Notes: generated by a model not told the origin, from the sequence alone. DNA of 38,687 nt from Escherichia coli (GCF_003334385.1 NZ_QOWN01000041.1); one strand, 5' to 3'; shown: positions 34,800 through 37,380, counted from the stretch's first letter. Program-made: numbers and translations.

Positions 34800-36010
34800 A
34801 GCGTTTATACGACAATAATGCCCAGGGCAAGATTACGAAAGCCCGCTCCCCGTAAGGACTGACGCTAGGTAGTTTCTGTCCATGGCTGCTTTTCGCATCT
34901 TACGTCTTAACCCTGCCTTGAATACCTTATCATTCGTCAAAATATTAATAGCAATGTGCCGTATCCCTGAAAATAATTCTGCTGCATTTCCTCTTCTTAT
35001 TTTGCAGTCGTCTTCATTCATTACCACGTCCAGACGCCAGTGCAGCTTATTCTCCACATGCCAGTGGTTTCGGATTGCTGTGGCGAACTTCTCTGCGGTT
35101 AAATCAGCAGAACTGATATAATATCTGACCGTCATTTCGAGCTCTTTCTTTTGTTCTGCTATTATGGACCGAAAGGAGACTGCCACGCATAATTTCTTCA
35201 GCCCTTTCCATTCAAACGTGAAATCAATAAGTTCATCAGGGACATCGCAAACAATATGAAGACGGATTTCTTCTCTGCCGTGACTCTTTTCACTCATTGC
35301 GTAACTGTCATGCGCTGGATTATTTAATTCTTTCAGCGGAAATTTTTCCTCAAAGGCTTTATTTAGCCGCCCCTGGTTTCCTTTTACCGCGAATAAATAA
35401 TCACCTCCCTGTTTTTGTATCTTCTCTGCAATATCTTTCTGGCAACCCATCGCATCAGTTGTGATGATTTTTCCTTTAATATCCAGCATGTTAAGAAGTT
35501 CTGGGATAGCTGTAATCTCATTAGATTTCTCATCCGTCTTGATCTGTCCGATGACCAGACTGTGCATTGTTGAGAACGCACTAATGACATGAATCGCTCC
35601 CCTGCGGCGACTCTTGTCATAAGAGTGCCGGAGCGTTTTTCCATCAATTGCAATGACGTCTTTATCATCTGAAGAATGGCAGTCACGCATCCAGTTAATA
35701 AAGCACTCGTGAAATTTTGCAGGACTGATACAGGATACAACTCTGGCAATGGTATCGTGAACAGGAATACCATTTTCAAAATCACCATATTGCTTCAAAA
35801 AATCGGGATGTGTTTCCCCAAAATCCTCTATATCTTCCCAGCCTTCTGCACCAGAAATAACGGCACAAATAGTCAACAGTAGAATATCCGATAACTTATG
35901 TTCCATTTTCCAGGCTTGTCTGTAATCGGGGATAATAGAAATATGTCCCATCAATTTTTTAAGTTCCATTTTGTTCTCCTTAATTATGTAAGGAGTATTT
36001 GATCATGTGT
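34800..36010 (-). mobile_element. H-repeat (ISAs1-like) element carrying ydcC; boundaries approximate
   Basis: Single transposase ORF in an AT-rich block next to the rhs remnant; terminal inverted repeats not resolved by eye. Confidence 0.35.
34833..35969 (-). CDS. ydcC: H-repeat-associated (ISAs1-family) transposase
   Basis: 378-aa [54 protein letters not shown]...; DDE transposase of the Rhs-linked H-repeat type. Confidence 0.88.
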
Positions 36011-36208
36011 AAGCAATAAAAAACAGCTTTAGGTAATAAGGAATATCTCAATTTTTAAACATAAAATGCGAATTGTTTAGTACAAAAAGTGAACTTCTGA
36101 TGATCTTTCCCTGTGTTTAACGCAGCCTTCTTTCTTTTCCTCTTCACCCTTAATGTCTTTGCAATCTCTTAATAAATTCAGTGCCATCTTCTTTATTCCA
36201 GATATTAT

Positions 36209-37199
36209 TTAGGCTGCGTTTCCTCTTCTTATCCGGCTGGCATCTTCATTCATTTTTACATCTAACACCCAATGAAGACTGTGCTCGATCAGCCAGTGCG
36301 CTCTGATAGCATGTGCAAATTCTTTAGCATCCATATCCTTTGATGAAATATAATATCGGATGCTTACACCTTCTGCTGATTTATCTTCTTTCTTCTGCCT
36401 GAATGACAATGCTACACAAAGCTTTTTTAATCCCTTCCATTCGAATTCAAAATCACAAAAGTTCAGGCGTTACGTTACTGACAATATGCAAACGTGTTTC
36501 TTTTCTTCCATGACTTATCTCCTGCGTACTAAACGAATCGCCTTTATAATTAGAAAACACATTTACAGGAAATTTTTCCTCGAATGCATGATGTAATTTC
36601 CCCTGATTGCCTTTTACTGCCAGAAGATAATCTGCTTTTTTATCTTTGATCTTCGAAGCGATATCTTTCTGACAGCCCATAGCATCAATGGTTATCAAAT
36701 TTTTCTTTAAATACAGTAGGTTAAGCAACTCTGGAATGGCTGTAATCTCATTACTTTTGGCTTCCGTTTTCACCTGCCCCAGTACAACACCATTTTCGTT
36801 CGAGAATGCACTCACCATATGGATTGCTCCTTTTCTTTTTCCCTTATCAAAGGAGCCTCTTATGGTCTTTCCATCTATTGCTATAATTTCACCATCAGTG
36901 ATTTCATGGCACTCCTGCATCCATTCAATAAACATCTTTTCAAAGGCCAAACTGTCAATGTTACTCACAACGCGTGCAATGGTGTCATCGACCGGAATGC
37001 CATTATCAAAATCACCATATTTCTTTAGCCATTCAAGTCTTTCATGTCCAAAATCTTCAATTTCCTGCCACTCATCGGCACCTGCAATTACTGCACATAC
37101 GGTGAGAAACAAAATAGCAGATAATTTATGTTTAACCTTTCCTTGTTGTCGTATATCAGGGGTCACTGAAATATAATCAAGCAAACTTTGAATACTCAC
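36209..37199 (-). pseudogene. yncI: second, diverged H-repeat transposase gene, frameshifted and C-terminally truncated
   Basis: 248-aa N-terminal ORF (36453-37199) and 66-aa piece (36209-36409) are both homologous to YdcC but in different frames; the protein ends at ...RRGNAA, where ydcC continues [14 protein letters not shown]... Confidence 0.75.
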
Positions 37200-37380
37200 C
37201 TGGCGTCCTTTTTTATCTTTTTAGTTATTCCAAAGGTTAAATTTTGATCACCTGTAGGCGTTAAAGCAAAGATGAAAATCGTGATTTACATCACAATTTT
37301 CATGATCTTGCCCTGCCCCGTCCCTTGCTCTCATGTCTTTCTGTATGTATTTTATATTTTTCTCTTTCTGGTGTTGTTCA

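Follow-up and report, generated by a model that had tools for sequence, protein, structure and literature searches.

Here we analysed a stretch of Escherichia coli DNA of 38,687 nucleotides (the window, by which we mean the whole stretch) and, within it, two ISAs1-type transposase genes, ydcC and yncI, that stand in tandem between pptA and ydcD, close to an rhs gene remnant. In a search of complete E. coli genomes, positions 34700-37400 matched E. coli K-12 genomes over their full length at 99.9% identity, and this part of the window is K-12 pptA–ydcC–yncI–ydcD–rhsE, the K-12 pair having the same sequence and the same neighbours, pptA, ydcD and the rhsE fragment. The annotated order in strain MG1655 is yddH, pptA, ydcC, an ISAs1 pseudogene, YncO, ydcD and an N-terminally truncated RHS gene. 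The Prokaryotic Genome Annotation Pipeline (PGAP) labels ydcC (b1460) 'ISAs1-like element ISEc5 family transposase' and the second copy (yncI, b1458/b1459) 'ISAs1 family transposase', 'frameshifted; internal stop', nearly full length. Both genes lie on the minus strand, as do ydcD and the rhsE fragment, in agreement with the common orientation of the two genes and the rhs remnant given in a preliminary description of this DNA. In MG1655 yncI is recorded as a pseudogene with a stop at amino-acid position 249 (PMC11148124), and the gene with this premature stop is intact in O157:H7 Sakai, where it is annotated as ISEc26 family (PMC11540155). The pair is hence a known, already annotated and ordinary feature of K-12, and the window itself is of low importance, consisting here of mobile-element genes annotated in the best-studied bacterial genome. 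What the annotation lacks is the nesting of the ydcC element in the yncI element, a 5-base-pair (bp) deletion and a 100-bp truncation; in other respects we found no substantive difference from it.

The features on which the analysis rests are the following, in window coordinates:

34823..36113, minus strand: complete H-repeat (H-rpt) element (PGAP: ISAs1-like ISEc5/ISEc1 family), 1291 bp, ends CAGGG…CCCTG
34833..35969, minus strand: ydcC, intact 378-codon ISAs1-family DDE transposase gene (reading frame, profiles, annotation)
34823..34842: H-rpt right inverted repeat CAGGGCAAGATTACGAAAGC, adjoining the pptA flank at 34822/34823 without target duplication
36094..36113: H-rpt left inverted repeat, minus-strand reading CAGGGAAAGATCATCAGAAG (repeat search)
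36114..36123: proximal 10-bp target duplicate TGTTTAACGC; both copies present in loci L004 and L011, distal copy absent from the window
36114..37315, minus strand: remnant (yncI) of a 1305-bp ISEc26-like ISAs1 element, 1202 bp with the last 100 bp gone, 99.17% identical to the O157:H7 element
36114..36208, minus strand: residual yncI C-terminal coding tail, cut off by H-rpt, with a 5-bp deletion (GGGTG) at 36149/36150
36209..36211, minus strand: in-frame nonsense codon TAA (GAA in the orthologue; alignment)
36212..36460, minus strand: yncI middle segment in the shifted frame, ending …RRGNAA (translation)
36461, minus strand: inserted C (CCTGAAcTTTTGTG), shifting the frame by +1 against the intact orthologue (alignment)
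36453..37199, minus strand: 248-codon N-terminal reading frame of yncI, closed by a TGA that the frameshift created
37296..37315: ISEc26-like left inverted repeat, minus-strand reading CAGGGCAAGATCATGAAAAT, lying 66 bp downstream of the stop codon of ydcD

The description of ydcC as an intact gene of 378 codons stands, the open reading frame (ORF) running through 34833-35969 on the minus strand. The NCBIfam ISAs1 transposase profile NF033564, whose cut-off is 70 bits, matched the product with 416 bits over profile positions 1-314, and Pfam returned PF13808 (DDE_Tnp_1_assoc, 6e-33) and PF01609 (DDE_Tnp_1, 2e-30); the catalytic D, D and E are predicted to lie in the motifs IAIDGK, TDAMGC and HVENKLHW. 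Members of the ISAs1 family measure about 1.2-1.5 kilobases (kb) and carry one long ORF between imperfect inverted repeats starting CAGGG, and the target-site duplication taken as the family criterion was about 8-10 bp. The ydcC element, with its 1291 bp, its single ORF and its ends CAGGG…CCCTG, fits this size and structure, and by the profile, domain and size/ends criteria tested it classifies as a member of the family. Compared with yhhI, the H-rpt copy of K-12 RhsB, it shows 25 differences in 1291 positions; yhhI has the same length, an ORF of 378 codons and the same ends, and each of the two elements lies distal to an Rhs core and a unique segment. The yhhI copy differs in carrying no target duplication, in not being nested and in its PGAP label, 'ISEc1 family' as against 'ISEc5 family' for ydcC. 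The association of H-rpt with Rhs elements has long been known; Zhao et al. in 1993 reportedly described the H-rpt of RhsB (ISEc1), and the ydcC element fits that description.

The second copy has decayed in several steps. Its two ORF pieces, the N-terminal 248 codons and a piece of 66 codons at 36209-36409 on the minus strand, match NF033564 with 293 and 82 bits, and Pfam likewise assigns this copy to the ISAs1 family. The preliminary description had placed a frameshift or stop near 36410-36452, and the split is indeed present, its cause being the inserted C at 36461, just outside that interval. It had also taken the C-terminus to be lost after RRGNAA, which is not the case, the TAA there being an in-frame nonsense codon beyond which homologous coding sequence stays in frame (IISGIKKMALNLLRDCKDIKG…) as far as 36114, where the H-rpt inverted repeat begins. 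In the same way the distance of about 240 bp between the two genes was correctly stated but is not a spacer, consisting of 144 bp of the H-rpt left end (35970-36113) and 95 bp of the yncI tail (36114-36208). The repeat search showed the left inverted repeat of H-rpt to recur in direct orientation at 37297-37315, and this recurrence, 116 bp upstream of the yncI start codon, marks the left end of the yncI element. No right end of this element is present in the window: it runs into the H-rpt left inverted repeat at 36113/36114, and the 100 bp missing from there on comprise 27 codons and the right inverted repeat. With its right inverted repeat gone and its transposase ORF interrupted, the ISEc26-like copy classifies as a remnant and not as a functional ISAs1 member. 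Judged from these lesions yncI is an irreversibly dead pseudogene, while ydcC still appears as an intact DDE transposase gene; yncI is better described as a full-length decayed gene shortened by a nested insertion sequence (IS) than as a gene without a C-terminus.

The undamaged state of the second copy is found in other strains. Among 5426 complete E. coli genomes, to which all genome counts given here refer, 2529 carry sequence of this type, most of them in single copy. O157:H7 SS52 has an intact gene of 390 amino acids (WP_000027427.1, PGAP 'ISEc26 family') in an element of 1305 bp (locus L003, 4901-6205) with both inverted repeats present, its ends being CAGGGCAAGATCATGAAAAT and CAGGGCAAGAGCATGAATTA. 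Its left flank holds ydcD, YncO and an rhs fragment as in the window; it differs in having no H-rpt inside and in lying at the yafV locus, not at the pptA locus. The window remnant is 99.17% identical to this element over 1200 aligned bases, with ten substitutions, among them the G→T at 36211 that makes the TAA; the other differences are the C at 36461, the 5-bp deletion, an extra non-coding A at 37214 and the loss of the terminal 100 bp. An uninterrupted ISEc26-like right end occurs in 310 genomes, the examples listed being O157:H7, with O55:H7 as well. The alignment of ydcC with the O157 reading frame stops only a few residues short of the C-terminus of ydcC, so that we take the O157 form as the functional state and that of the window as decayed. 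When the ends of the ISEc26-like element were checked for a target duplication, the flanks shared only the 5-bp CCCCG.

This intact orthologue also bears on the possibility that yncI is a working transposase gene expressed by programmed frameshifting, as in IS1 or IS3. The pieces of yncI do lie in adjacent frames and jointly cover nearly the whole family profile, as such a mechanism would have it. The orthologue, however, is one continuous ORF without the extra C, ydcC is likewise a single ORF, and downstream of the shift come the TAA, the 5-bp deletion and the truncation by the IS. The shift site itself, GAA CTT TTG TGA, matches no slippery motif known to us. Since the intact gene requires no frameshift, programmed frameshifting is ruled out as an account of the split, and we give it practically no chance.

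At the protein level ydcC is 59% (146/248) and 57% (38/67) identical to the two yncI pieces and 58% (217/373) identical to the O157 orthologue, so that the earlier estimate of about half was slightly low; at the DNA level the two copies are 67% identical. Profiles, identities and lesions agree in presenting two related but diverged ISAs1-type transposase genes in tandem, the second of them decayed, as had been described; that the ORFs might be unrelated is contradicted by all three reading frames, which match NF033564 above its cut-off. We also considered whether the pair could have arisen by duplication of one transposase gene in place, followed by divergence. The copies are adjacent, share their orientation and run collinearly through much of the ORF at a register of 1230 bp, as tandem duplicates would. 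Against this, their DNA identity is only 67%, each has its own inverted repeat, they belong to differently named elements, the second has a free-standing, intact counterpart of 99.2% identity at a different locus in O157:H7, and in other genomes a 10-bp target duplication brackets the ydcC element. Tandem duplication was rejected on the target duplication and the intact orthologue, being extremely improbable, and the view that the pair is not a recent duplication was upheld.

The structure around the 10-bp duplication is the classic mark of one IS having transposed into another. The tandem is present in 2145 genomes, and in strains 97-3250 and E2865 the same tandem lies beside yafV, with H-rpt bracketed by a perfect direct repeat of 10 bp, …TGTTTAACGC/H-rpt/TGTTTAACGC…; past the distal TGTTTAACGC the missing 100 bp and the right inverted repeat follow, and then the same flank at yafV that O157 has. 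This complete nested structure at yafV was found in 284 genomes. The alignment of the two copies and their flanks that the preliminary description had proposed was thus carried out, defining the inverted repeats and recovering the target duplication in other genomes. The successive insertions it had supposed are borne out in that the ydcC element entered the 3' end of the older element; its idea of an rhs-associated hotspot is not, the second element having struck the first element itself and not rhs-linked DNA. In the corresponding history an ISEc26-like element of 1305 bp was located just downstream of an rhs toxin tip and ydcD, and the 1291-bp H-rpt then transposed into its last 110 bp, duplicating the 10-bp target TGTTTAACGC and depriving the older transposase of its last 27 codons. 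Comparison of the sequences, through the target duplication and the intact orthologue, demonstrates this nesting of one IS in another. All three lesions of the yncI ORF are common to K-12, SW070917, 97-3250 and E2865, and must therefore predate the split of the two chromosomal contexts.

No target duplication was found at the other H-rpt copies examined, which represent at least six distinct insertions (yhhI, Ec-U10, EC958, the second O157 copy and the pptA-junction copies of O103, 90-1 and O157 strain 131). Transposition of H-rpt has not been observed (PMC3032704), and the 10-bp duplication may be read as a clean historical footprint of such transposition in E. coli.

The arrangement in the window is different from that at yafV. 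Here the right end of H-rpt stands directly on the pptA flank (…CAATAATGCC/CAGGG), with neither the distal duplicate nor the tail of the ISEc26-like element. The identical junction of H-rpt and pptA occurs in 2367 genomes, including O157, O103 and strain 90-1, in which H-rpt at pptA has a different left flank and different Rhs tips. We compared K-12 with 97-3250 over their collinear block of 5 kb and found that divergence is far from uniform, amounting to 3.5% in H-rpt, 0.25% in the ISEc26 remnant, 0.36% in the ydcD region and 5.5% in the Rhs fragment when tip and core are taken as one segment. The remnant, ydcD and the rhs tip differ between the two strains by only about 0.3%. The difference between H-rpt and the remnant is significant (Fisher p = 3e-10), and divergence climbs no more than about 40 bp from the left end of H-rpt. 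At the other side the Rhs tip is nearly invariant, the differences starting just upstream of the DPIGL boundary between core and tip, at about 38423. A nearly invariant cassette in single copy, set at two loci between repeats that have diverged, is best fitted by cassette transfer through homologous recombination. The K-12 arrangement would then be secondary, a cassette composed of the rhs tip, ydcD and the decayed ISEc26-like element having been placed at RhsE/pptA by one crossover in the Rhs core and another inside an H-rpt that already lay beside pptA, or at its end; the same event would have cost the older element its last 100 bp, along with the distal target duplicate. For this step the most likely course, as we infer it from the divergence pattern, is that H-rpt served as a crossover arm in moving the rhs-tip/ydcD cassette between Rhs loci. 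To the whole explanation, nesting followed by transfer to RhsE/pptA through homologous recombination, we assign a probability of roughly 0.8.

Several observations weigh against it. In a comparison of nine copies, the single-nucleotide mosaic of the K-12 H-rpt is patchy and reveals no single clean crossover: the element carries the alleles of pptA-resident copies at element positions 245-272, 984 and 1019, non-resident alleles at 930-979, 1275 and 1291, and 12 private changes. Gene conversion among paralogues could in part have raised the divergence of H-rpt and of the Rhs core. The K-12 Rhs core fragment is only 93% identical to the resident core of O103, and a chimeric junction query of all complete E. 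coli genomes found none with a simple H-rpt insertion and its 10-bp duplication at pptA. The names ISEc26, ISEc1 and ISEc5, moreover, are those of the PGAP annotation. Finally, the homology between K-12 and Ec-U10 stops exactly at the H-rpt end (34822/34823), where Ec-U10 has no IS.

This last point, together with the lack of a target duplication at the pptA junction and of any genome with a simple insertion at that site, would be expected had the junction been formed by an adjacent deletion, in which intramolecular transposition from the H-rpt right inverted repeat into the pptA flank removed the distal duplicate, the 100 bp and any intervening DNA; strains with a solitary H-rpt at pptA would then descend from the K-12 form by replacement of its left side. 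Such a deletion still presupposes an inter-locus transfer, the nested block having first to be brought near pptA. It does not account for O157:H7, which has H-rpt at the pptA junction and yet an uninterrupted ISEc26-like element at yafV, and a divergence of 3.5% in H-rpt beside 0.25% in the adjoining remnant is unexpected for one and the same copy staying in place. We therefore regard adjacent deletion as unlikely, though by no means negligible, and retain nesting followed by homologous transfer as the preferred explanation.

The transferred unit could also be thought of as the two elements alone, a composite of 2.5 kb mobile as a whole by its outer ends (34823-34840 and 37298-37315), which are 89% complementary over 18 nucleotides and so pair better than the two ends of H-rpt itself. 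No target duplication flanks such a unit, CAATAATGCC standing on one side and CCCCGTCCCT on the other, and no 2.5-kb unit was seen alone with target duplications at unrelated sites. The flank beyond 37315, with ydcD, is the same at both loci, and the unit that moved must hence have been larger than the two elements. A composite transposon, which we rejected on the missing target duplication and the shared ydcD flank, is very improbable.

A more general form of the recombination model, which we advance tentatively and at somewhat less than even odds, would have H-rpt as the downstream and the Rhs core as the upstream arm of a double crossover by which toxin-tip/immunity cassettes are swapped between Rhs loci. 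The K-12 tandem would then be the scar of a swap from the yafV locus, linked to the type VI secretion system, into RhsE, with the 10-bp duplication as direct evidence of H-rpt transposition.

Further observations concern the Rhs genes and the junction at pptA. The K-12 rhsE fragment (37847-38687; locus L001, 9148-11184) ends where collinearity with 97-3250 ends. At the corresponding locus SW070917 (locus L002, 6925 onward) encodes an RHS core protein of full length that carries the K-12 tip, from which it follows that K-12 lost the 5' part by deletion. At the junction of pptA and H-rpt (34821-34822) K-12 reads GCC/CAGGG and O103, O157 and 90-1 read GC/CAGGG, the IS-free sequence of Ec-U10 having GCC as in K-12. 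Past the end of homology (locus L006, 5473/5474) Ec-U10 carries a gene for a SymE-family toxin and a hypothetical gene, and 1.4 kb further on an H-rpt without target duplication.

The pair and its surroundings have been reshaped repeatedly in other strains. Further insertions affect the yncI remnant in some strains (L002, 4525-5222; H26, NZ_AP027759.1; XL1-Blue, PMC11148124), an IS1 lying between ydcC and yncI in SW070917 and 2017-02-1CC and an IS10R at yncI codon 262 in XL1-Blue. The pptA-side H-rpt of the O157-like strain 131 (locus L005, 6474-10263) contains a 48-bp expansion near element position 329, made of six extra copies of the 8-bp unit TGTTCTGC, and in its 5' untranslated region an ISEc8 (IS66 family) flanked by duplicated CTCCTTAAT. 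In EC958, of sequence type ST131 (locus L010, 4715-6005), an intact H-rpt stands directly between yddH and ansP, and pptA and the whole of RhsE are absent, a layout that suggests IS-associated deletion on both sides. An orphan H-rpt left inverted repeat adjoining an IS1 fragment, about 209 bp beyond the resident H-rpt (L008 and L009, about 6455-6473; L005, about 10454-10472), indicates an earlier ISAs1 copy that is now deleted.

Around the left end of the ISEc26-like element one further feature was recorded:

37272..37303, minus strand: hairpin with a 14-bp stem and a T-rich tail, terminator-like, overlapping the ISEc26-like left inverted repeat at the inner end of the latter

This hairpin could protect the transposase gene against transcription running on from ydcD. 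It is among the terminator-like matches, whose number is modestly above the shuffled expectation; promoter-like matches equal that expectation, and an Rfam scan of 34000-38687 gave no match. YncO (37281-37466, plus strand) begins inside the left end of the element, just within the inverted repeat, so that its 5' part is IS-derived; its direction is outward and antisense to ydcD at the 3' end of that gene, and it accompanies the element at the O157 yafV locus as well.

Placing these results beside known systems, the closest comparison is with the Rhs loci studied by Jackson et al. (2009), who found tips to be exchanged and displaced between Rhs loci and proposed a model of circular intermediates with single crossovers through core homology (PMC2935791). 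As in their data, we find the same tip and ydcD cassette at two Rhs loci (positions 1 and 6 in their numbering) and a divergence that rises at the core/tip boundary, as recombination in the core predicts (PMC2935791). Unlike in their model, the downstream boundary here coincides with H-rpt, which suggests a double-crossover replacement (PMC2935791). In a term search of that paper H-rpt and transposases go unmentioned, and IS elements appear only generically in relation to chromosomal rearrangement (PMC2935791). The clade I loci of E. coli are usually without displaced tips, which H-rpt arms would explain if the double-crossover model were true (PMC2935791).

The divergence pattern of the cassette hints that IS elements help to shuffle Rhs toxin/immunity cassettes, and it bears in this way on the diversification of polymorphic toxins. 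H-repeat-mediated recombination was reportedly described in Salmonella O-antigen clusters by Xiang, Hobbs and Reeves in 1994. That case concerns another gene cluster and another species and is comparable by analogy only, H-rpt acting in it as a portable stretch of homology or a breakpoint, the part that we suppose it may have played beside pptA.

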